Positions 9,048 to 19,923 are shown, counted from the first letter of the stretch. The stretch is 25,432 nt of DNA from Promethearchaeota archaeon (GCA_048939465.1 JBHLPL010000016.1:1-25432); one strand, 5' to 3'. The notes: generated by a model not told the origin, from the letters alone. Made by a program: numbers and translations.

Positions 9048-9191
9048 GGGCCCGTAGCTCAGTCAGGTAGAGCACCGGGCTTTTAAACCCTGGTGCTTCC
9101 TTGTGAAGAAACCCGGTGGGTCGTGCTGCAAATCGCACGCGAGCCGCTGCAATCTGCAGAATCGTGGGTTCGATTCCCGCCGGGCCCGCCA
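9048..9191 (+). tRNA. tRNA-Lys(UUU) with a 37/38 intron (9086-9110, 25 nt) and a composite 46/47 insertion (9120-9161, 42 nt); CCA encoded
   Basis: Removing both segments gives a 77-nt cloverleaf: GGGCCCG/CGGGCCC acceptor, GCTC/GAGC D stem, CCGGG/CCCGG anticodon stem with CTTTTAA loop, GTGGG-TTCGATT-CCCGC T arm. The 37/38 BHB helix is CTTT:GAAG. Confidence 0.93.
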
Positions 9192-9207
9192 GTCTATTCT
9201 CCTATTC

Positions 9208-9816
9208 CTAAGACACTTTGACGGATACGCTCAAACCTCGTCCTGCATCGATTGGCAAGATTACTGTGCTCCATTTCTCTGGATTCGTGATTTCATTGAC
9301 AAAATCTTCCATCCTTTCGCGGTGGGATACTGTATTATGTGCAGTAACTATACTTCCTGCTTTTAGTTTGGGGAACATCGAGGTCAAATACATAAGATAC
9401 TCGTCTTTTGCTCCATCAATAAAGGCAAAATCTATTTCTACATCAAGTTTATCAATCTGGTCTATCGCATTTCCATGAATTATCTCGATACAGTCTGCTA
9501 TTCCTTCTAGATCCTCGATCTTGCTTGCCTTCTTTAAATTGGATTTAGCAGCTTCAGCTCTTTCCGAGCTTCTTTCGATTGTATATACCTTTCCTACACC
9601 ATCGCTGTCGATCAAACCTTTTGCAAGCCAGAGCGCAGAATATCCAACTCCTGTTCCAACTTCAACGACATTGACAAAATCTCTAGGTTGTGCGTACATA
9701 CGAAGCAGAATGCTTAGGAATTCCCCGCAATCCCGAGAAATCGGATGATAGCCAAATCTCTGTCTGCTGATCTCATCCATCAGATTTAAGAATGATTTTG
9801 ACATCATGATTTTCAC
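9208..9816 (-). CDS. O-methyltransferase (Methyltransf_3, COMT/YrrM-like)
   Basis: VVEVGTGVGYSALWLA, VYTIE, FAFIDGAKDEY, VTAHN. Confidence 0.88.
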   Translation of the reverse strand: MKIMMSKSFLNLMDEISRQRFGYHPISRDCGEFLSILLRMYAQPRDFVNVVEVGTGVGYSALWLAKGLIDSDGVGKVYTIERSSERAEAAKSNLKKASKIEDLEGIADCIEIIHGNAIDQIDKLDVEIDFAFIDGAKDEYLMYLTSMFPKLKAGSIVTAHNTVSHRERMEDFVNEITNPEKWSTVILPIDAGRGLSVSVKVS

Positions 9817-9846
9817 ATATTCGTTCTTTAATTAAGATTTCTCACA

Positions 9847-10362
9847 TTAAAAGGAGAATCTACATCCAGAAATTTCGGGGCCCGCCTTCCATGGCCGTCT
9901 CTCTGAATCAGATAAATCCATAAACATCTCTACATGTCCGAGATTTTTAAAACCCCGTTCAAAAAAGAATTTCATAGCTAGTACGTTTCGCGCTACAGGC
10001 TTCACTTTGAGGAATCTTATTCCTCTGCTGCGGGCCTCGGTGATTATCCTCTGTATTAATTGGTTTCCTATTCCCTTCTTTCGGAAACCCTTCTTTATTA
10101 CAATAGGTTCAACTTCGCCTTCCTCTCCCTCAACAATCAATCCAGTAAGTCCAATAACCTGGGATTCATGAACAGCGACCCAGATTTGGTCAGGTCCCAC
10201 CTCTTCGAGGTGCTCGTCGAAGTGGTCTTCTGGGTGTTCCCCTCCAATTGTTGGATCCTGGTAAATTTCACGATGCCACTCAGTAAGCTCTCCCCATAGG
10301 GCACGACATTGATCTCTGTATTCGTCGTTGTATTTGTGAATTACAAACGATATACCCATCAA
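9847..10362 (-). CDS. GNAT family N-acetyltransferase
   Basis: Motif A IVIKKGFRKKGIGNQL; NVLAMKFFFERGF. Confidence 0.88.
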   Translation of the reverse strand: MMGISFVIHKYNDEYRDQCRALWGELTEWHREIYQDPTIGGEHPEDHFDEHLEEVGPDQIWVAVHESQVIGLTGLIVEGEEGEVEPIVIKKGFRKKGIGNQLIQRIITEARSRGIRFLKVKPVARNVLAMKFFFERGFKNLGHVEMFMDLSDSERRPWKAGPEISGCRFSF

Positions 10363-10404
10363 ACATTCACTTCCGTTATTTTCTTTTAGATGATTAAGAC
10401 TTGA

Positions 10405-11199
10405 CTACCAATAATCCATTATCAAAAACTGCCGCTCAGGAAAAATAGACCTCAGCAATCGATCCCTTTCCTTTTGACTAAGTGTTGTCTTAACATCTAT
10501 CTGATTCGTTCTCAGTGACTTGATGGGATCCATAATGCCAAAGACCAGCTGTATCAGAGAGTCACGACTCATTGAAATCTTTAAATCAACCGGTTGGTTG
10601 GTCCACACAATGGTTTCGACATTCTCTCTGGTTCTTCTAATGAATATACTATTCTCTTCGCACTCTATCTGGACTAAGCCTTCCCATCTTTTCATGCTTT
10701 CTAAGCGCTCCAAGAAAACGGGCTCTAATTCCGTGAGGAAAATTCGCAAATCAAGTACTGAAAACATTAGCACATCATTGGTTTTCGTTTCAAAAAACCC
10801 TAGATCAGTAAAGATCTTTTCATATGTTGGAGTCTGAACATAGTAACTACTAACAACTGTAGCTCCCTTCTTAGCAAGCACGTCGTTAACCTTCCCTATG
10901 AGTTCTTCGGCTATCTCTTCAAAGTCGTGTTCAACGTCAACAACTATCTCCATGATATCTCCCCATTTTGATCTTCTGTGATATTTTGCATGAGCGTATC
11001 CTAAGATGTGATTTTGATCTTCAACCGCAACCCAGTTTATGAGGTCGGTTGCGTACGATTTGTCTTCCTTACGAAGCATGAGTCTAAATGTTCTATGATC
11101 TCTATGAGCGACTCCCACAAATTGTCTAGAAAACTCATTGTACAGCTCAAGCATCTTCGGTATGTCTTCTTTCTTCGCTTCTCGCAGTTGTATTTTCAT
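10405..11199 (-). CDS. GNAT-fold + SCP2-like (Eis-type C-terminal) protein with degenerate acetyl-CoA loop
   Basis: N-terminal IQLREAKKEDIPKMLELY and WVAVEDQNHILGY GNAT strands; C-terminal VDLKISMSRDSLIQLVFG SCP2-like segment. ATG at 11199 lies 2 nt after the upstream stop, preceded by GGGGA. Confidence 0.7.
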   Translation of the reverse strand: MKIQLREAKKEDIPKMLELYNEFSRQFVGVAHRDHRTFRLMLRKEDKSYATDLINWVAVEDQNHILGYAHAKYHRRSKWGDIMEIVVDVEHDFEEIAEELIGKVNDVLAKKGATVVSSYYVQTPTYEKIFTDLGFFETKTNDVLMFSVLDLRIFLTELEPVFLERLESMKRWEGLVQIECEENSIFIRRTRENVETIVWTNQPVDLKISMSRDSLIQLVFGIMDPIKSLRTNQIDVKTTLSQKERDRLLRSIFPERQFLIMDYW

Positions 11200-11201
11200 G
11201 A

Positions 11202-11999
11202 TTAATCCCCCCATCTCCAATGTAAGACGCGTTTAAGCAATTCAATGTCTTCCTGTTCTCCTCTTTTGAGTACGAGTCTTTTGCTCTCAATAGCTTCCTC
11301 CCATGGTACCACATTCCACCATATCTTGGTATAAGTCTGTAAATCTGTGGAAAACTCTATGTCGATCCTCTTAGGCACCCTTCTTGGAACTTGAAAACGA
11401 CCTTTCTTGAACTGGAAGCATAATTCTCCGACTTCCTTGATGCCTATAACAATGGTTTTTTCCCATCCTTTCAACTTCCTTTTGGCAATCTTCGAGTCTT
11501 TCAATCGACGGTTACGCCTTCGAATCCAATTAGTAAAGAGCGAACGAAAATCTAGGTATTTCATAAAGGTGCGAAAAGTAGCCAAGTCAACAAATCCGAG
11601 TCGTTCATAAACTCTGTGAGCTGGATTATCGAGCTCAGTGTAGAGGGCGGAACTTGAAATCCCCTTATTCTTTGTGGACTCTAAAGCTTTCCCAATTACA
11701 TTGCTTGCTATCCCTTTCTTCCTATGGTCGGAATCTGTGCACACAGCAGCAACTGCCCCGGTTCTCAAGTAGGTCTTCTCGCCGACATGTAGTTTCCTAG
11801 ACATTATCTCAACGTAGCTCACAAGTTTCCCATCAACCTCCGCAACGAATGCGTCATCAGAATTAATCTTTTCTTGACTGTACCACTGTAAGAGCTGTTT
11901 AGGAGTCACTGGACCAAAGCATTCCCTGAGAATCTTGGCCAGATTTGTTTCATCACCTTTCTTATAGTTGCGAACTAGGTACTTCGTGGGTTCACTCAA
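11202..11999 (-). CDS. GNAT (Eis N-terminal-like) + SCP2-like domain acetyltransferase
   Basis: GAVAAVCTDSDHRKKGIAS motif A; NPAHRVYERLGF; C-terminal IDIEFSTDLQTYTKIWW...EAIESKRLVLK SCP2-like. Confidence 0.8.
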   Translation of the reverse strand: MSEPTKYLVRNYKKGDETNLAKILRECFGPVTPKQLLQWYSQEKINSDDAFVAEVDGKLVSYVEIMSRKLHVGEKTYLRTGAVAAVCTDSDHRKKGIASNVIGKALESTKNKGISSSALYTELDNPAHRVYERLGFVDLATFRTFMKYLDFRSLFTNWIRRRNRRLKDSKIAKRKLKGWEKTIVIGIKEVGELCFQFKKGRFQVPRRVPKRIDIEFSTDLQTYTKIWWNVVPWEEAIESKRLVLKRGEQEDIELLKRVLHWRWGD

Positions 12000-12102
12000 A
12001 TGTTGCCCCCCTAATTAATAACTGTAATAATCGTTAAGATATGACTAAGTAGAGGCCAAAGCCTTTATTAAACTCTCCAAAAAGCCTTATAAGATTCGTC
12101 AG

Positions 12103-12331
12103 AATCTGGGGAGAATAGTATGCCAGCATCAAAAACATCCGTGCAAGGCTATATTATGACGCAGGCACTGACTCAGTCGAGAAAATGGCATCTTCGAATC
12201 CTAAAGAACTTCGAGCACTGCTTATTGAATTTGTTAAAAGAACCCAATTCGACGGAATCGCACCGTTGTCAAAGGAGGCTGAATTCTCAGTCAGAAAGGC
12301 CAAGGAATTGCCAAAGATAGTGGAATACTAG
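12103..12331 (+). pseudogene. 5'-truncated, frameshifted remnant of a DUF4332-like (HhH) protein gene
   Basis: Frame from 12119 reads YASIKNIRARLYYDAGTDSVEKMASSNPKELRALLIEFVKRTQFDGIAPLSKEAEFSVRKAKELPKIVEY* and is preceded by an in-frame TAG (12116). NLGRI lies just upstream in another frame. Family assignment is from recalled similarity, not a search. Confidence 0.7.
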
Positions 12332-12430
12332 AGAAACCTACGATCTCAATAGTGGTAAATCCGGACCTTATTGATTTCATTGTTATCAAAAACCTTTTAG
12401 GAGAAATAATTCCTAGTTAAAAAGGAATGT

Positions 12431-12559
12431 GGGCCCGTAGCTCAGGTAGGTAGAGCGTCGGTCCATTTAGTCGATGGGACGAAGCTCTTAACCCGATGGA
12501 CTGTTAAGCGCATGGTTTAACAGGTCGAATCAGGGGTTCAATTCCCCTCGGGCCCGCCA
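12431..12559 (+). tRNA. tRNA-Lys(CUU) with introns at 30/31 (12462-12483, 22 nt) and 46/47 (12500-12529, 30 nt); CCA encoded
   Basis: Spliced product is a 77-nt cloverleaf (TCGGG/CCCGA stem, CTCTTAA loop, AGGGG-TTCAATT-CCCCT). The 30/31 intron has a full BHB (GAG:CTC, CGTC:GACG, CCAT:ATGG). The 46/47 intron has helix CGAT:GTCG plus a CTGTTAA/TTAACAG stem. Confidence 0.95.
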
Positions 12560-12689
12560 ACCATAATTCGAGAATCTTTTGCCCAGAAACCCCAATATTG
12601 GTGCTTCGAGACATACCTGGCAATTCAGAATGCTCGATAATTCTCCGTTAGGGGAGACTCATAAGTGCTTGCTAGGGTGGAGATAGACT

Positions 12690-13451
12690 TTGTGCAATAC
12701 GGGAAGAATAAGAAAAGAATGGAATGATGCTGCTGAATCATGGGTAGATTTTGTAAGGAAAGGGAAGGACTACCATAGAGATCAAATCAACAATCCTGCT
12801 GCCTTTGGCTTGATAGGCAATGTAAAAGGTATGAACGTGTTGGATCTGGCCTGTGGAGAGGGATACAACACAAGAATCCTTGCTAGAAAAGGGGCCAAGG
12901 TAGTCGGTGTAGATCTTTCAGAGAGAATGATTGAATTTGCGAGGCAGGAAGAAAAGACAGAGGAACTTGGCATATCATATCATAATTTGGACGCCTCGGA
13001 CCTTAAGGAATTTTCAAGCCATCATTTTGATCTTGTAACATGTTTTATGTCTCTCCAAGATATTGAGAGCTATGAAAAAGCAATATCGGAAGTAGCCAGG
13101 GTCTTGAAGAATCGTTCTAGATTCATCTTCTCGATCCCTCACCCGTGTTTTGAAAGAATAAATGGGTTGGAAGTAAGTACAAGAAGGAAGTATTTCCGAG
13201 CAGTTCGATACTCTTTGGAATGGAAAATGGAAAGACTAAAAGAACCATTCAGAACCACGTCCTTCCATAGGACTTTGACAGACTACATTGCTGTCCTTAA
13301 CGGGAGCGGATTATTCGTGTCTAATCTCTTGGAGCCGAAGCCCACGGAAAAGGGAGTACTGAAACATCCTAGGCTCAAAAAGAATTTGGCGATACCAGAA
13401 TCGATAGTAATTGAATCCATAAAAATCGAGGACGGCTGGGTCAGATCCTGA
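12690..13451 (+). CDS. Class I SAM-dependent methyltransferase
   Basis: VLDLACGEGY, VVGVDLS, FDLVTCFMSL, ARVLK, FSIPHPCF. TTG start. Confidence 0.9.
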   Translation: MCNTGRIRKEWNDAAESWVDFVRKGKDYHRDQINNPAAFGLIGNVKGMNVLDLACGEGYNTRILARKGAKVVGVDLSERMIEFARQEEKTEELGISYHNLDASDLKEFSSHHFDLVTCFMSLQDIESYEKAISEVARVLKNRSRFIFSIPHPCFERINGLEVSTRRKYFRAVRYSLEWKMERLKEPFRTTSFHRTLTDYIAVLNGSGLFVSNLLEPKPTEKGVLKHPRLKKNLAIPESIVIESIKIEDGWVRS

Positions 13452-13904
13452 AGAGAGACTTGGAGATATCGACCTGCAAATCCTTATTATTGTCACTCAC
13501 CGATAGGTTTGGAATTCGATGCACTCCCATATCATCGTCCTACCCCGGTCTCTTAAATGCGACGCGCAGGACCTATTCATGCGACTGCCTTCCGTTAAAT
13601 TGCCTTTGGAGGTAAGTTGTCAATAATATAGTAACTATGTGTTATCTAATCCAGATGAGAATGGCACCAAGGGAATCTGCTGGTCATATATACTTACAGT
13701 AGGAAAAGATGATGCACTTGTATGTACAGGTCCACCATGCAAGAATGAATTCAGAAAATACGCAATTAGATAATTTGTAGTGTTAGTATCTCTTTTAGTT
13801 TCCTTGATCTTACCAACATATAGCTCTCAGTATATAGCAAAATTCATTGATTCTTTTAAATAATCGTAGAAGCCATTACTGCATAATCCAAAAACGAATG
13901 GATC

Positions 13905-14825
13905 GTGACGTATTTGAAGCAAAGCATCCTCCTCCCCATTCCAAAGAATTTCAACTTCTGGACTACTGTCTGGAGCAGCGGCTGGTGCAGCTTAGAGCCT
14001 TTTGCCGTTAGCAAGGAAGAGCAGACACTGTCTCGCGTTCAAAAATTATCGAGTGGAAAAATCGTTAGGGTTACGCTGGCACAAAACCGTAAGGGCGAAC
14101 TCCCAATCTTGGTAGAATCCCATAGAAGGATGAGCATTTCAGACGTTGACGAACTCGAAAATGTTGTGAAAATCTGTCTAAGATTGGACGAAGATCTTTC
14201 ACCTCTCTACTCTCTGCTTGAAGATTACCCAGAGTTTGGCTGGGCAGAAGAACTCGATGTTGGTCGCTCTGTTAGATCCCCCACCGTTTTCGAAGACGTC
14301 GTTAAGACAATCTGCACCACAAATGCTAGCTGGTCTCTTACAAAAGCTGCAATACACAGAATCTGCAGAAGGATCGGGGATAGCTTCTCTGATGAGTTTC
14401 ACACGTTTCCAACACCCCGGCAAATGGCCTCAAAAAGTGAGGAATTCATGAGAAAAGAGATAAGAGTCGGCTATCGCAGCCCCTATCTGATAGAACTGGC
14501 TCAAAAAACAGCTGAAGGGAGATTTGATGTTGAATCATGGAACACCTGTTTGACAAGTTCTACTGACCTTAAAGCTGAAATCACAAAACTAAAGGGAGTG
14601 GGGAGTTACGCAGCAGACAACATATTGAAGCTCCTGGGTAGGTATGATTTTCTGGCTATAGACAGCTGGGTGAGAAAGAGATTTGCTAAAATCCACAGGA
14701 AAGGGAAAATGGCCTCCGATGGGGAGATTGAAGAATTCTACGCTCCGTTCGGGGAATGGAGGGGTTTGGTTTTGTGGCTTGACTTGACAAAGGAGTGGCT
14801 TATCCCCGAGAGTGAAAGAAAGTAG
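13905..14825 (+). CDS. HhH-GPD DNA glycosylase (OGG_N + HhH; AlkA/OGG1-like)
   Basis: RSPTVFEDVVKTICTTN, FPTP, HhH LKGVGSYAA, catalytic Asp in AIDSWV, YAPFGEWRG. Confidence 0.85.
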   Translation: MTYLKQSILLPIPKNFNFWTTVWSSGWCSLEPFAVSKEEQTLSRVQKLSSGKIVRVTLAQNRKGELPILVESHRRMSISDVDELENVVKICLRLDEDLSPLYSLLEDYPEFGWAEELDVGRSVRSPTVFEDVVKTICTTNASWSLTKAAIHRICRRIGDSFSDEFHTFPTPRQMASKSEEFMRKEIRVGYRSPYLIELAQKTAEGRFDVESWNTCLTSSTDLKAEITKLKGVGSYAADNILKLLGRYDFLAIDSWVRKRFAKIHRKGKMASDGEIEEFYAPFGEWRGLVLWLDLTKEWLIPESERK

Positions 14826-14906
14826 TTCTATTGGAATGTATAGATTGAATTAGTATTACGCTGGGCGATCATTTTGTAAAGAAGGTTCTGAGTAACGTTT
14901 TGCGTC

Positions 14907-15224
14907 TCAAAAGTACTTATCCTTGGCTGTTTTAATAGTCCCAGAAACGCCTAGCACGTGTATTAGGACTGGCATTCTTTCCACCTCTCTTAGGGTGGCC
15001 AATGGTACTCTGATCAAATCAACTGCTCTGTGAGTGCACTGAATAATCCCCCTCTTTGAGCCTTCTTCATAGTAGGAAAGCCAGAATTGTGCTTTGCTTG
15101 CTCCGTACTCGCCGTATATCCTGATAATCTCATTCATAATGCTATGTATAAGCATACTCTTCCTAACTTCCCCCTCTGAAAACAACTCGAACGCAATGTA
15201 TCTCCGCCTTTGTCTTTTTCTCAT
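14907..15224 (-). CDS. rnp2: RNase P protein subunit Pop5/Rpp14
   Basis: RRRYIAFEL, GIIQCTH, VLGVSGTIKTA; overlaps the rnp3 stop (ATGA). Confidence 0.93.
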   Translation of the reverse strand: MRKRQRRRYIAFELFSEGEVRKSMLIHSIMNEIIRIYGEYGASKAQFWLSYYEEGSKRGIIQCTHRAVDLIRVPLATLREVERMPVLIHVLGVSGTIKTAKDKYF

Positions 15225-15952
15225 TTATGGCTCACCGGTCTTTTCACGATTTTTATTCCTTTCATGACGTAATCTGGATCTCGTTTCTCAACATTGCGAA
15301 GAATCATACGTTTGGGTACTTCAGACAAGGCCTGCTTTGCCTTTTTTTCATCAATGTCCAACAGTTTCGCCAAGGCCATTAGCTCTCGCGGTCCCCTTAA
15401 TTGGTATTTGTGGGTGGCCCCGCTGCTTAGCAGAAGAGGCGCATTAGCGTTAACTGTTTCTTCAACCACCTTGCAAAACCCGTTAAGAATGTTTACCCGT
15501 GGAACTCCACGCGTCGAAATTATCCAACTCAACGAAATCTCTACTGCTGTGTTATTCTTGGCAGCCAACTTCGCAGCTGTTCTGCGAAAAATCTTTGCAT
15601 TTTCAGGGTTTATCACTATTATGTCTACTCGCGAATCTCGTGCTGCTAAGGAAAATAGGTTGCGATTTGGGCATTCAACCCCAATTATGTCGATATTGCC
15701 CCTGATACGACTCAGCGCCCGCTTAAGCGAGACTGAAGATTTTGCCGTGATATCCGCCCTCGAAAGGATCTTGATTTTGAAGTCTCCTAATTCATCCTTC
15801 AGCTTATTGAAGTCACTGATAGGTCTCCGGGCAAAATCTGCGAAACATACACCGTGGATTCCCAGTCCTTCGACAAACTTGCCTATCTCAGAAGGTGTAG
15901 ACTCACCAATGGATAGTGTTGAATTGACGCGCATATCATAGAATTCTGTCAT
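15221..15952 (-). CDS. rnp3: RNase P protein subunit Rpp30
   Basis: PHP-like FYDMRV, AARDSRVDII, AVEISL, LSSGATHKYQLRGPRELMAL. Confidence 0.92.
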   Translation of the reverse strand: MTEFYDMRVNSTLSIGESTPSEIGKFVEGLGIHGVCFADFARRPISDFNKLKDELGDFKIKILSRADITAKSSVSLKRALSRIRGNIDIIGVECPNRNLFSLAARDSRVDIIVINPENAKIFRRTAAKLAAKNNTAVEISLSWIISTRGVPRVNILNGFCKVVEETVNANAPLLLSSGATHKYQLRGPRELMALAKLLDIDEKKAKQALSEVPKRMILRNVEKRDPDYVMKGIKIVKRPVSHK

Positions 15953-16434
15953 TATTTCACCAAGAAATGCCTTTTGTAAGATTCAATAATTCCTTTATTT
16001 GTTAGAGTTGACGGCTTCGCAGTACTAACCCTAACTTTTATCGCATCGTCGATCGGCCTGAAAATAGGTCTTCCTCGATAAGCTGATTGTTTATCGATGC
16101 GCAGGTGAAGGACCCCCGTCTCATCTAAGCGCATCTCTAGCTCCTTGGAGAGAAGCAATCGCTCTTTCTTGTCAAATTTGCTGAATAGGTAAAGTAAAGA
16201 TTCCTCTACAAGCTTTTTCTCAAGAATTTTCATACGATAGACAACTATTTGATTCCGGTAATGCCCCTTCAGAACGTCTCTTCTAGTCCTGATTTCGTCT
16301 CTGAATCTGTCAGGTATCAGATTAAGTACGGCTTGAAGTACCTTATCTTCATCTTCCGTGGCATGCGCAAATACTTCAAATTCGATAGATTTTGGGCGTA
16401 TTTCAAACAAATGCAGACCACCAAAATTAGTCAT
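15952..16434 (-). CDS. DUF54 RNA-binding protein (COG1325, predicted exosome-associated)
   Basis: [40 protein letters not shown]; conserved position between rpl15e and rnp3. Confidence 0.85.
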
Positions 16435-17018
16435 TTGCCTCGATGGTCGTGTGTTCTAAGACTTGGTCGTATTTTTTCTGCACCTATGCCCTTATGTCTC
16501 AATCCGCGCGCCGCCCTACCTGCACTGGTCAATCCTCGGTAAACCCGTCCTTTGTTCGCTTTATCAGATATCCAATTAATCTTGGGATCGTTCATGATCA
16601 CCGGATGGCTACGATCCACAAGGATAACTTCATACCATTTTTGTTTGCCGTCTTGAGCGACCCAGTACGAGTTTAGAACCTCCATGTTTGGGTATCTCTT
16701 GGCAGCTCTTTCTTCAGCTATCCATCTCAGATTCTTTCCTGGCGTCAAACGCTTAAATCCCATCTTCCTAGGCTTTCTACCCATTCTCGGTCTGGACCTT
16801 CTTAGAGAACCTCTCCTAACACGAACCCGCACAATTATGTATCCTTGTTTTGCTTTGTATCCTAGTCTCCTTGCCCTATCCAGTCGTGTTGGATGGTCAA
16901 TTCTAACGGCGGTTGGTTGTCTTCTCCATTTGATTAATCGATGCCATGTTAGCTCCTTTACGTACGTTTGGTCTGGCTTTTTCCAAGCTTTCGCGATATG
17001 CTGATACACATTTGGCAC
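16431..17018 (-). CDS. rpl15e: 50S ribosomal protein L15e
   Basis: [26 protein letters not shown]-like [21 protein letters not shown]. Start placed at GTG 17018, 6 nt after SD-like GAGGTG; the ORF track starts at 17027. Confidence 0.97.
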
Positions 17019-17146
17019 CAGTAGCACCTCTATCGACCTTTAAGGTTTAGGCCAACAGTTACGTAGCAGAAGATTTTTCGGTCAATGTCCCTGCTGTTAA
17101 TACCGAACATTCCTTTTAAATTGTACCATTTTTGATGAAAACTATC

Positions 17147-17161
17147 CTAATTAACCTTTCG
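17147..17161 (-). promoter_or_regulatory. Candidate BRE-TATA for the rpl15e operon
   Basis: Minus strand CGAAAGG-TTAATTAG. A second TATA-like TTTAAAAG at 17120-17113 lacks a good BRE. Confidence 0.4.
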
Positions 17162-17251
17162 CCTAGGAATACGAGTCCAGAATCCCCTGTTTTGGTGAAA
17201 CTTTTTTATCGTGAATAGGCATTTCTTAATCTTGGGAACAGGGCGTTTAAT

Positions 17252-18259
17252 ATGAAAGAAGCGTCATTTTACGAAAAACAAGATGGAAAATTGAAATGTG
17301 GTCTCTGCAGCCACAGATGTTTGATCCTTGAGTCAAAAAAAGGGATTTGTGGAGTGAGACAGAATAAAGGCGGGGTACTTTATTCGCTGGTCTATGGAAG
17401 AACTGTTGCCCAACACATAGATCCGATAGAGAAAAAGCCCCTTTACCATTTCCATCCGGGATCATACGCATATTCTATTGCAACTGCGGGCTGCAACTTC
17501 AAATGTAAGAACTGCCAGAATGCAGATATCTCCCAAATGCCGGCAGATCATAACAGGATAATCGGAGACAATGTTCCTCCGGATAGGATTGTGAAATTAG
17601 CGAAACAATACAACTGCAGGAGTATCGCGTACACATACACTGAACCAACGATTTTCTATGAGTATGCCTATGATATCTCCAGATTGGCAAGCCGTGAGGG
17701 TATTAAAAACATCTTCGTAACAAATGGTTACATCACTGAAGAGGCTTTGCGGGAAATCAATCCTTATCTGGATGCGGCCAACATAGACTTAAAGAGTTTC
17801 AGCGACAAGTTCTATCGGAGTAACTGCGGCGCCCGCCTCAAACCCGTCCTGCAATCCATAGAGCTTCACAAAGAGCTGGGAATCTGGATTGAGATAACGA
17901 CACTTATCATACCAACCTTGAATGATTCGGAGCGTGAACTGCGCCGAATCGCAGAATTTATCAAGAGCGTTGGTGAAGAGATTCCCTGGCATGTTTCTGC
18001 TTTCTACCCCGCCTATAAGCTAAGAAACATAGAGCGAACCCCCACGAAAACTCTCAGAAAAGCCAGAAAGATAGGATTAGAGGTTGGGTTAAGATATGTC
18101 TACACAGGCAACATTCTTGGGGACGTCGGAGAACATACCTACTGTTATAAATGCGGTGCAGCACTAATTCGTAGGTATGGATTCGAGATTATGGAGAACC
18201 GAATCAAAGACTCTAAATGTCCCAATTGCGGTGCGAAGATTGATATTGTTGGGATCTAA
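17252..18259 (+). CDS. amrS: AmmeMemoRadiSam system radical SAM enzyme
   Basis: N-terminal CGLCSHRC...GICGVR, DPIEKKPLYHFHPG, CNFKCKNC (CX3CX2C), YTYTEP, C-terminal CYKC...CPNC. Confidence 0.93.
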   Translation: MKEASFYEKQDGKLKCGLCSHRCLILESKKGICGVRQNKGGVLYSLVYGRTVAQHIDPIEKKPLYHFHPGSYAYSIATAGCNFKCKNCQNADISQMPADHNRIIGDNVPPDRIVKLAKQYNCRSIAYTYTEPTIFYEYAYDISRLASREGIKNIFVTNGYITEEALREINPYLDAANIDLKSFSDKFYRSNCGARLKPVLQSIELHKELGIWIEITTLIIPTLNDSERELRRIAEFIKSVGEEIPWHVSAFYPAYKLRNIERTPTKTLRKARKIGLEVGLRYVYTGNILGDVGEHTYCYKCGAALIRRYGFEIMENRIKDSKCPNCGAKIDIVGI

Positions 18260-18302
18260 TTCTTATAGGTTTGCTGCACTGAGAATAATGCAAAAGATTT
18301 AG

Positions 18303-18455
18303 TGGTGGGTCGGGTGGGATTTTCCCCATCCAAGGCTCCCTTAAACGGTTTTGAACCCACGAGTTTGTGACAAAGTCATTTTGGCATCTGTTCTCGCGCG
18401 ATCTGGCCTGTTGGTCCCCAGGCGCGGATCCTAAACCAGGCTAGACCACCGACCC
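18303..18455 (-). tRNA. tRNA-Pro(GGG) with three introns: 37/38 (18415-18401, 15 nt), 46/47 (18391-18363, 29 nt; 3' edge uncertain by 2 nt), 59/60 (18349-18320, 30 nt); CCA encoded
   Basis: Spliced cloverleaf is 79 nt: GGGTCGG/CCGACCC, GTCT/GGAT, CGCGC/GCGCG with CTGGGGC loop, GTGGG-TTCAAAT-CCCAC, ACCA. BHB helices CTGG:CCAG (37/38) and TTCA:GGAA plus a 10-bp intron stem (59/60). Confidence 0.93.
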
Positions 18456-18493
18456 GCCTTGACTCTCGCTCTTAAATAATTAGCGGCGAATTA

Positions 18494-18506
18494 CTTTTAA
18501 GTTTTT
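18494..18506 (-). promoter_or_regulatory. Candidate BRE-TATA for tRNA-Pro
   Basis: Minus strand AAAAAC-TTAAAAG about 40-50 nt upstream of tRNA G1. Confidence 0.45.
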
Positions 18507-18510
18507 GTTG

Positions 18511-19923
18511 TCAAAACCATGTTGGTGTTTTTCTAAAGAATCGTGTAATAAAATCAGAGAATTCATAATTCTTCTTGCACACATTTGTAATATCCTCGTT
18601 CCTGTAAATCTCATATCCTTCTTCGATTTTCTTACGAATGTATTTTCCCAAGCCGACTGAATCAATGTTCGTCCTCAATTCCTCAGCGAGACATTCCTTG
18701 GCGTCAGCGTAATCTCTTTTCAGCTCAATAACCCACCGACCACCTTCTATCCAAGGCCCGGAAAGGACTCTGTCTGATTCGGCGTATTTTTCTAGGAAGA
18801 TGTCTTGGTTTGGGCTGCCTACAGGGGGACCAGTGTGAGTCCTTACCTTGGGGAGATTTGCATTTTCTAATTCAAAAATCATTGCAACAGTCTTCTCCTC
18901 ATCGGACCAAACGCCCTCCCTGGTGACCCTAAACTCATTCTGGGAGAGAATCTGCTTGACTGCCTTAACTGATTTGTATAATTGCCCCCAGAGTACATCA
19001 GGAACAATGTCTGGGGCTTCAAAAACCAGAAGTAGAACATCAGTTCCTCTTGCTCTTATAGTACTCTTGATTTCTTCTGAGGTGTGTGGCTTCCTCTTTT
19101 CTGGAAAGAAGAATTTAAGAGTAGGATCTTTCAGGAAAGCATAAGCTGCCGCCCTGAATTCGTCCAGCTTTGCTGGGGTGAGAGCTGCTGCCACGTTTCT
19201 TGTTTTGTCGACAGGGTCTACGACAATAAACTCATCCGAGAAAATCTTCCTCGTCATCTCTGGATCTTCATAGTGCTTCTGAATGTCGACAACCTCTCTC
19301 TTTCTCCACTTCTGACATGATTTCAAAACTTCGATGAAAGTGTCATACCCAATTACCAGCAGCTCACCTAGATATCCCGAGAATCCACCAGTCTTTATTT
19401 CAGCACCATAAACCCCTATCCCCTTCATGAATCCCTTTAGAAGACGTACCTCATCCAGCTGACGTATGGCTAGATGTTTGTTTACATATTCCGTGTGAAG
19501 TGGTGTCCTGTCTACGGCTGTTTGCATTTCTGATATGTCTCTAATCTCAAAACCGGGGACCACGTCAATCCGATAGGAATTTATTCGTCCCTGAATGTAA
19601 GGGTGTTCAGCATATCTCTCTTTCCATTTCTCGAACAGTATCTTGGCGATATCCAATCCTATGGAAACAATATCCTTTTTGGAGAACTTTTTTGGAAAGA
19701 GTATGAATATGTCAATGTCCCTATCGCCGGATATCCACGTATTCTTGGCAATCGACCCCTCAATTCGTACTTTTACGTTCTCTATTTCTCGCCTTTTGAT
19801 TTCTTGATCAAGCCTTTCGACCATGGTCTTGGTAATACTGAGGGTCTCTTCCTTCTCTCTCTTGCTTGGAACAAGCCTTCTCAAAGCCTTTCTGCATAGG
19901 TTTACACATTCAGCTTCTTTCAT
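18511..19923 (-). CDS. cca: CCA-adding tRNA nucleotidyltransferase (archaeal class I)
   Basis: EGSIAKNTWISGDRDIDIF, YAEHPY, AVDRTPLH, GFSGYLGELL, DPVDKTRNVAAA. Confidence 0.97.
   Translation of the reverse strand: MKEAECVNLCRKALRRLVPSKREKEETLSITKTMVERLDQEIKRREIENVKVRIEGSIAKNTWISGDRDIDIFILFPKKFSKKDIVSIGLDIAKILFEKWKERYAEHPYIQGRINSYRIDVVPGFEIRDISEMQTAVDRTPLHTEYVNKHLAIRQLDEVRLLKGFMKGIGVYGAEIKTGGFSGYLGELLVIGYDTFIEVLKSCQKWRKREVVDIQKHYEDPEMTRKIFSDEFIVVDPVDKTRNVAAALTPAKLDEFRAAAYAFLKDPTLKFFFPEKRKPHTSEEIKSTIRARGTDVLLLVFEAPDIVPDVLWGQLYKSVKAVKQILSQNEFRVTREGVWSDEEKTVAMIFELENANLPKVRTHTGPPVGSPNQDIFLEKYAESDRVLSGPWIEGGRWVIELKRDYADAKECLAEELRTNIDSVGLGKYIRKKIEEGYEIYRNEDITNVCKKNYEFSDFITRFFRKTPTWF

Follow-up and report, generated by a model that had tools for sequence, protein, structure and literature searches.

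What interrupts the tRNA genes of an archaeon in the variable loop, and is such an interruption a recent event? This question is raised by a stretch of 25,432 nucleotides from a Promethearchaeota archaeon (GCA_048939465.1 JBHLPL010000016.1:1-25432; the whole stretch is called the window here), which contains genes for tRNA-Lys(UUU), tRNA-Lys(CUU) and tRNA-Pro(GGG). An earlier examination of the DNA, made without database searches and called here the sequence-only reading, had described introns directly after nucleotide 46 in all three genes and had taken them for a lineage-wide gain at an uncommon site. Our analysis shows that all three genes very probably are functional, belong to an Asgard archaeon of the Odinarchaeia type and have precursors that contain archaeal bulge-helix-bulge (BHB) introns, including inherited ones in the variable loop.

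Three tRNA genes with seven introns

The genes were parsed with a depth-first program of our own, which threads a cloverleaf template through the sequence and allows jumps only at possible BHB motifs. The BHB rule used is a 4-bp central helix that ends 2 nt before each cut, together with 3-nt bulges; flanking helices on the exon side (h) and on the intron side (h′) are counted. The following genes and introns were found:

9048..9191, plus strand: tRNA-Lys(UUU) gene including the encoded CCA; exons 9048-9085, 9111-9119 and 9162-9188; Rfam tRNA match of 50.3 bits, cloverleaf parse
9086..9110, plus strand: tRNA-Lys(UUU), canonical 37/38 intron of 25 nt, full hBHBh′ motif; central helix with 4/4 pairs, stem of 2 bp on the intron side, helix of 7 bp on the exon side
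9120..9161, plus strand: tRNA-Lys(UUU), composite intron of 42 nt after nucleotide 46; outer-boundary BHB 3/4, without an adjacent stem
12431..12559, plus strand: tRNA-Lys(CUU) gene including the encoded CCA; exons 12431-12461, 12484-12499 and 12530-12556; Rfam tRNA match of 43 bits
12462..12483, plus strand: tRNA-Lys(CUU), 30/31 intron of 22 nt in the anticodon stem, full hBHBh′ motif; central helix with 4/4 pairs, stem of 5 bp on the intron side, helix of 4 bp on the exon side
12500..12529, plus strand: tRNA-Lys(CUU), 46/47 intron of 30 nt, HBh′ motif; central helix with 4/4 pairs, stem of 7-9 bp on the intron side, no helix on the exon side
18303..18455, minus strand: tRNA-Pro(GGG) gene with three introns; body 18455-18306 and encoded CCA 18305-18303; parsed by hand and by the cloverleaf/BHB search
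18401..18415, minus strand: tRNA-Pro(GGG), canonical 37/38 intron of 15 nt; central helix with 4/4 pairs (CTGG:CCAG), stem of 2 bp on the intron side, helix of 5 bp on the exon side
18365..18391, minus strand: tRNA-Pro(GGG), intron of 27 nt after nucleotide 46; central helix with 3/4 pairs, stem of 4 bp on the intron side, no helix on the exon side
18320..18349, minus strand: tRNA-Pro(GGG), 59/60 intron of 30 nt in the T-loop; central helix with 3/4 pairs, stem of 10 bp on the intron side, helix of 5 bp on the exon side

Altogether, the three tRNA genes contain seven introns, and each gene has one of them directly after nucleotide 46. ARAGORN called none of the three genes in the window. At the gathering threshold, Rfam matched two of them (9048-9188 and 12431-12556), each with very large internal insertions, and for tRNA-Pro(GGG) no Rfam match was obtained on 18250-18520 even at E<=10. 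After in silico removal of the introns ARAGORN identified tRNA-Lys(ttt), tRNA-Lys(ctt) and tRNA-Pro(ggg), while nothing was called on the unspliced sequences. The spliced parses of all three fold into a canonical cloverleaf with 0 stem mismatches, and for tRNA-Lys(CUU) the parse gave a single clean solution. Thus, the loci become standard tRNAs once the seven insertions are removed, and are undetectable or score poorly before. The interruption of all three genes after nucleotide 46, and the count of seven introns, had been stated in the sequence-only reading and are borne out by the cloverleaf parses and by the ARAGORN calls after splicing.

Geometry of the introns after nucleotide 46

In the arrangement that we propose, nucleotides 41-44, which form the 3′ strand of the anticodon stem, would pair with a stretch of four bases close to the intron's 3′ end to give the 4-bp central helix. 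Cleavage would occur in the 3-nt bulges on both sides of this helix, with the 5′ cut after nucleotide 46 and the 3′ cut after a conserved AA. The only flanking helix would be the hairpin inside the intron, which makes this a relaxed motif of the helix-bulge-helix (HBh′) type. The genome's splicing endonuclease (EndA), predicted to be an (alpha-beta)2 enzyme, would cleave the precursor, the L1 loop (Crenarchaea-specific loop, CSL) of its alpha subunit permitting relaxed motifs, and the exons would then be ligated.

The 46/47 intron of tRNA-Lys(CUU) is a textbook relaxed HBh′ motif. Nucleotides 41-44 (CGAT) pair with GTCG in all four positions, the bulges are GGA and AAT, and the intron stem CTGTTAA/TTAACAG abuts the central helix. 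In tRNA-Pro(GGG) nucleotides 41-44 (GCGA) pair in three of four positions with TCAC, and a 4-bp stem (CAGA/TTTG) adjoins; canonical cuts give a variable loop of 7 nt (AGAACTC). With introns shuffled and boundaries fixed, the strict BHB rule was satisfied at variable-loop sites in only 0.2-1.2% of the shuffles; therefore, the motifs of tRNA-Lys(CUU) and tRNA-Pro(GGG) are not due to chance.

The tRNA-Lys(UUU) insert is built differently. At its outer boundaries CGGT pairs with GCAG in three of four positions, and both the intron-side stem and the exon-side helix are 0; we rejected the insert as a single strict BHB intron on these grounds. A perfect partner of nucleotides 41-44, GCCG, is located at 9143-9146 and adjoins a stem; it is 13 nt upstream of the place where the 3′ cut is expected. 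Between this GCCG and the cut site AA/TC (slashes mark predicted cuts) is a 13-nt hairpin, CTGCA-ATC-TGCAG, at 9147-9159. The exon-side helix is absent in all three introns after nucleotide 46 and the intron-side helix is present in all of them, in tRNA-Lys(UUU) beside the inner helix. The geometry that the sequence-only reading had assigned to all three, a central helix with nucleotides 41-44 and an HBh′ motif lacking the exon-side helix, thus holds as far as the missing helix is concerned, and it holds for tRNA-Lys(CUU), with 4/4 pairs, and, imperfectly, for tRNA-Pro(GGG), with 3/4 pairs and a stem, but tRNA-Lys(UUU) does not fit the simple geometry.

Orthologues in related genomes

The genome to which the window belongs (G000) was compared with six others: G001 and G002 are from the same genus, and G003 to G006 from another (sister) family of the same order. 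G003 is a complete genome with a single contig of 1,418,269 bases.

The composite tRNA-Lys(UUU) intron of 42 nt is the same in G001 and G002. In G001 one pair of the 13-nt hairpin is changed from T:A to G:C, a compensatory change, and the helix at the outer boundary is 4/4 there, versus 3/4 in G000. In all four genomes of the sister family the gene reads TGG/ACCCC...GGGG GCCG AA/TC, without the 13 nt. The intron there is a simple HBh′ motif with a 4/4 helix and a stem of 4-6 bp, the loop sequence of which differs among the four genomes. An alternative parse of the window gene, with a 41-nt intron at 50/51 and a 6-nt loop, was judged less likely because the orthologues of the sister family read TGG/.../TC.

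The insert in tRNA-Lys(UUU) might consist of two nested introns that are removed in two rounds at one 5′ junction, first 29 nt (CGGT:GCCG) and then the 13 nt as a bulge-helix-loop mini-intron (CGGT:GCAG). The inner boundary, with its 4/4 helix and adjacent stem, is homologous to the simple intron of the sister family, and the outer boundary, imperfect in G000, is perfect in G001. Stemless mini-insertions with a 4/4 helix are also present in the D-loops of both tRNAs for Gln of the same genome, and archaeal introns that need sequential removal have been described by the authors of tRNAscan-SE (PMC8450103). Two rounds are, however, a purely structural deduction, and the hairpin with its compensatory change could equally be an insertion that is tolerated in the 3′ bulge when a single relaxed intron is removed in one step. 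We regard the nested arrangement as a serious candidate, although we lean slightly away from it.

Orthologues of tRNA-Pro(GGG) were found in five related genomes. In the sister family the gene is interrupted at this site, too, by an intron of 16-17 nt, which forms a 4/4 helix (GCGA:TCGC) and also ends in CAA/A, and the variable loop of the relatives is likewise 7 nt long (AGAATTC or AGAATCC). The tRNA-Lys(CUU) gene of G003 has both introns of the window gene. Its 30/31 intron has the same site and length, and its 46/47 intron is 29 nt long, is located at the same site and has the conserved ends ACTG...CAGGTTGAA. Altogether, the insertion site, the helix partner and the AA cut signal are kept in tRNA-Lys(UUU) and tRNA-Pro(GGG) of G003 to G006 and in tRNA-Lys(CUU) of G003; the interiors of the introns diverge and the stem is retained. 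The compact Lys tRNAs of more distant Asgard families (loci L052 and L053) have a 5-nt loop, TGGTC, and no variable-loop intron; this loop is the one predicted by the cuts that we propose. Among the genomes sampled, none outside this order has the three window introns.

The presence of the same introns in tRNA-Lys(UUU), tRNA-Lys(CUU) and tRNA-Pro(GGG) of the sister family argues that the window introns are older than the split of the two families and, as judged from these comparisons, were inherited from an ancestor shared with this Odinarchaeum-type family and are not recent parallel gains. An independent and recent origin of all three in the lineage of this genome, as a burst at one site, would fit the finding that the window introns are mutually unrelated in sequence. 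Some turnover at the site is also real, since tRNA-Arg(CCU) and tRNA-Arg(UCU) have 46/47 introns in G000 and are uninterrupted in G003; these two introns differ between the families and must therefore be due to later gain or loss. Against such a burst, the sister-family orthologues of all three window tRNAs are interrupted at the same site, and the conserved ends, ACTG...CAGGTYGAA in tRNA-Lys(CUU), GCCGAA in tRNA-Lys(UUU) and CAA in tRNA-Pro(GGG), fit vertical inheritance with divergence of the interior. We therefore consider recent independent gain improbable.

The splicing endonuclease

Relaxed motifs of this kind call for an endonuclease of broad specificity, and the sequence-only reading had expected one of the (alpha-beta)2 or the epsilon2 type. 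The genome contains exactly two EndA homologues (PF01974 and PF02778), located on contigs C90 and C139 and coding for proteins of 204 and 191 amino acids (aa), each with one N-terminal and one C-terminal domain. The larger protein, EndA alpha, aligns end to end with the catalytic alpha subunit of Aeropyrum pernix (3P1Z_B, E 1.5e-44). The alignment is free of gaps across the L1/CSL loop, which reads GIRKPK versus DVEKPR in A. pernix, and the His of the catalytic triad is kept, at the position that is replaced in the 3AJV mutant. By title, the nearest metagenome-assembled genomes for EndA alpha are from Hodarchaeota (82% identity), Odinarchaeia/Odinarchaeota (65%) and Helarchaeota (61%). The smaller protein, EndA beta, has Val at the position of the catalytic His and a 9-residue gap at the loop. 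It is nearest to the alpha4 enzyme of Methanocaldococcus jannaschii (1A79, E 1.6e-28), and its match to the crenarchaeal beta subunit 3P1Z_A is far weaker (E 4e-4).

According to these two genes EndA has the (alpha-beta)2 architecture, with the L1/CSL loop, which agrees with the first of the two expectations. The second had to be given up: an epsilon2-type EndA, a single three-unit polypeptide of about 390 aa, was not found in the genome, the only two homologues having 204 and 191 aa. By analogy with its homologues and with the enzymes described by Kaneta et al. (PMC5829648), the enzyme would assemble as a heterotetramer and would cleave relaxed motifs.

Introns in the tRNA genes of the whole genome

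G000 is a bin of 1.96 Mb in 152 contigs that is 91% complete with 3.8% contamination. As candidates for tRNA genes we collected acceptor-stem pairs anchored by the T-arm, the D-arm or CCA, together with Rfam matches, and the curated list was then parsed. The number of tRNA genes detected depends strongly on the method: ARAGORN reported 7 by default and 25 with the option -i, Rfam 24 above threshold, and anchoring by the acceptor stem at least 44-46.

The census gave the following totals, which are approximate, with Met, Ile(UAU), iMet and Ser(UGA) only partly resolved:

G000: 44 tRNA genes parsed, about 77 introns (1.75 per gene), 4 genes uninterrupted, 25 genes with at least two introns
G003: 41 tRNA genes parsed, 56 introns (1.37 per gene), 8 genes uninterrupted, 21 genes with at least two introns

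In G000, 40 of the 44 parsed genes are thus interrupted. The introns are distributed as follows:

Site 37/38: 22 introns
T-loop: 13 introns, mostly at 59/60, the commonest non-canonical site
Site 45/46: seven parsed genes (Ala GGC, Ala CGC, Thr UGU, Thr CGU, Val CAC, Val UAC and Glu UUC) and, by hand, Met
Site 46/47: six genes (Lys UUU, Lys CUU, Pro GGG, Arg CCU, Arg UCU and Trp)
Sites 43/44 to 44/45: 3 introns

Introns are also present in the long variable arm of most Leu genes. In G003 the site 46/47 is interrupted in three Thr and two Lys genes and in Pro GGG, and the site 45/46 in nine genes. Among the non-canonical sites of both genomes, 45/46 and 46/47 rank next to the T-loop in frequency.

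The positions are not fixed in every gene. The 46/47 intron of tRNA-Thr(GGU) is present only in G003, and the tRNA-Trp intron is located at 46/47 in G000 and at 43/44 in G003. The orthologues of tRNA-Thr(UGU) and tRNA-Thr(CGU) (C88:7220-7348 and C116:36947-37079 in G000; 592431 and 891977 in G003) are interrupted at 45/46 in G000 versus 46/47 in G003, each with a 4/4 helix, which indicates a shift of the intron by one nucleotide or its replacement. The sites 45/46 and 46/47 are therefore habitual intron sites throughout the order, at which individual introns turn over. For the sequence-only reading, which had assumed a lineage-wide gain at an uncommon site, this means that the lineage-wide occurrence stands and that the rest does not: the site is common in the order and the window introns date from before the split of the families. 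Introns at 46/47 are also present in three further tRNA genes (Arg CCU, Arg UCU and Trp), as that reading implied. With 46/47 introns already common in this lineage, its claim of novelty fails, and the observation itself remains.

Searching the 77 introns of G000 against each other with blastn-short revealed only chance matches of 7-11 nt (E>=0.007 in a tiny database) and no families of the kind left by transposition. The introns are thus mutually unrelated in sequence, as had been noted for those of the window. Insertions of about 10-12 nt were found in the D-loops of both tRNA-Gln genes (C134:29158-29269 and C150:4017-4083); they have a 4/4 helix and no flanking stem and can be described as bulge-helix-loop mini-introns.

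The census also brought up several unusual genes. A 160-nt tRNA gene of G000 (C121:9234-9393, plus strand) has the anticodon loop CTTATAA and, with a perfect 37/38 BHB (CTTA:TAAG), reads as tRNA-Ile(UAU); it has an intron in the D-loop and, in the variable region, about 29 nt of inserted sequence, and an orthologue is present in G003. Such a tRNA would mean that AUA is decoded by a UAU anticodon. An intron-free, 71-nt Cys(GCA)-like tRNA is encoded in both families (C11:6414-6484, plus strand, in G000 and G003:183515-183585) beside the normal tRNA-Cys. Its T-loop (TGCAAAT) is odd, its D-loop lacks GG, and its acceptor stem, GCCGGGA, is shared with a bacterial-looking tRNA-Leu(UAA) on contig C43. 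In the window, a gene for the CCA-adding enzyme (PF09249, PF21133 and PF01909) is located at 18511-19923 (minus strand), immediately upstream of tRNA-Pro(GGG) and on the same strand. The 3′ CCA is nevertheless encoded in all three tRNA genes of the window and in most other tRNA genes of the genome.

Weighing the interpretation

Several points speak against the interpretation of the window loci as functional genes with BHB introns. Splicing and the cut sites are predictions; the runs listed for the 9.5-kb stretch, and for the one with tRNA-Pro(GGG) and the CCA-adding enzyme, included no RNA run. The 42-nt insert of tRNA-Lys(UUU) lacks a simple BHB at its outer boundaries, where the helix is 3/4 and an adjacent stem is missing. 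With canonical cuts the variable loop of tRNA-Pro(GGG) would have 7 nt, an unusual length in class I tRNAs, and the solutions with a 5-nt loop are all without a good motif, the best helix having 2/4 pairs. Finally, our home-made parser accepts introns partly by the BHB rule; the census is thus partly circular, and the positions are biased toward BHB-compatible solutions.

As to tRNA-Pro(GGG), the options AGA+TC, AG+CTC and A+ACTC for a 5-nt loop were evaluated by hand and rejected, since their helices have 1-2 of 4 pairs. We favour the 7-nt loop, which is conserved, as the likelier product, because no 5-nt alternative comes with a credible motif.

Could the variable-region insertions instead be retained in the mature tRNA as enlarged arms, giving class II-like Lys and Pro tRNAs? 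With 13 nt left in the variable region a tRNA-Lys is still called by ARAGORN, which would be compatible with this idea. The interiors of the inserts are, however, not conserved between the families, whereas the helix partner and the cut signal are; the BHB geometry is reached at the level of about 1% of shuffles or fewer; loops of 5 nt are found in the compact Lys tRNAs of other Asgard families; and similar inserts occur in about half of the class I tRNAs, beside canonical 37/38 introns. Retention is thus very unlikely. That the loci have decayed to pseudogenes, or are artefacts in the assembly of a draft metagenome bin, is more unlikely still: the fragmentation and contamination of the bin and the imperfect variable-loop motifs in two of the three genes would allow it, but the conserved exons give perfect folds, the tRNA census of G000 revealed no further gene for these three anticodons, the same structures are present in six other independently assembled genomes, and the stretch is present in DNA runs of several studies, labelled as mangrove and sediment metagenomes. 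Three functional genes with BHB introns thus remain by far the most probable explanation.

Comparison with known systems

Intron-rich tRNA genes of Asgard archaea and Asgard (alpha-beta)2 endonucleases with the L1 loop are already published (PMC11291895; bioRxiv 10.64898/2026.10.13.758758; PMC5829648). Kaneta et al. (2018) reported that Asgard archaea, including Odinarchaeota LCB_4, have an (alpha-beta)2 EndA with L1, a type that cleaves HBh′ introns (PMC5829648). Introns were found in 92-95% of the tRNA genes of Atabeyarchaeia and Freyarchaeia (Valentin-Alvarado et al., 2024; PMC11291895). A bioRxiv preprint of October 2026 (10.64898/2026.10.13.758758) gives 2.2 intervening sequences per gene for three focal Asgard families, with repeated gains, and an enrichment of BHB motifs that includes insertions in the variable region; two EndA paralogues are reported for 44 of 60 genomes. 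The preprint describes Asgard introns as unrelated in sequence and contrasts them with the transposition-like intron families of Thermoproteales.

The families of the preprint resemble the genome studied here in that more than 90% of the tRNA genes are interrupted, over half have several introns, many sites are non-canonical, including the variable region, the introns are unrelated to each other, the genes are missed by standard annotators and two EndA paralogues are present. They differ in that the class concerned here is Odinarchaeia-type, which is not named in the main text of the preprint, and in the intron burden, which is about 1.75 here versus 2.2 per gene there. The hot spot at 45/46 and 46/47 that is common to two families is likewise not described in the readable text. 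A wider interpretation would combine three elements: the Odinarchaeia variable loop (45/46 and 46/47) as a lineage-specific hot spot, at which the intron mimics, with its 3′ end, the anticodon stem's 5′ strand; a nested tRNA-Lys(UUU) intron, removed in two rounds of EndA cleavage at one junction; and a 7-nt loop of tRNA-Pro(GGG) conserved over two families. As a combination, this is tentative and rather doubtful.

The introns are also similar to the non-canonical HBh′ introns of Thermoproteales (Marck and Grosjean, 2003, and Sugahara et al., 2008), as these are summarised in PMC4033280 and PMC8450103. Both are small (15-42 nt), are located at sites other than 37/38 and number up to three per gene, and both have a 4-bp central helix, imperfect here in two of the three introns after nucleotide 46, 3-nt bulges and a stem only on the intron side and depend, here by prediction, on an (alpha-beta)2 EndA. 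Unlike in Thermoproteales, the host here is an Asgard archaeon and there are no shared families of intron sequences. The density is above the Thermoproteales average: about 1.75 introns per gene over 44 genes compare with 1.54 in Pyrobaculum calidifontis (71 introns in 46 genes) and 0.84 on average in Thermoproteales, according to tRNAscan-SE 2.0 (PMC8450103). The density like that of Thermoproteales that the sequence-only reading had derived from three genes is thereby found in the whole genome.

The A. pernix (alpha-beta)2 EndA (3P1Z/3AJV) is alike in having an alpha subunit with the loop and the catalytic His, and the second paralogue here lacks both. Unlike in A. pernix, the beta protein is nearer to the M. 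jannaschii alpha4 enzyme (1A79) than to the crenarchaeal beta, and the heterotetramer is here a prediction. A relaxed HBh′ intron beside a canonical 37/38 intron in one precursor is also present in the Methanopyrus kandleri pre-tRNA-Glu(UUC), the 20b/21 intron of which was cleaved experimentally by the A. pernix (alpha-beta)2 EndA (PMC5829648). In contrast to the window introns, it is located in the D-loop and not in the variable loop, and its genome has just this one case (PMC5829648).

Significance for the Asgard archaea

With this genome an Odinarchaeia-type family joins those Asgard lineages that have introns in nearly all of their tRNA genes. Since ARAGORN called none of the three window genes and 7 in the genome, and Rfam detected 24, tRNA counts used to judge such bins are badly underestimated. 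The tRNA-Lys(UUU) and tRNA-Pro(GGG) precursors are concrete substrates with which the limits of the Asgard EndA could be explored. Old variable-loop introns, in all likelihood vertically inherited, occur here beside others that turn over, and in the Thr genes beside a site that differs by one nucleotide; this provides material on how such introns arrive.

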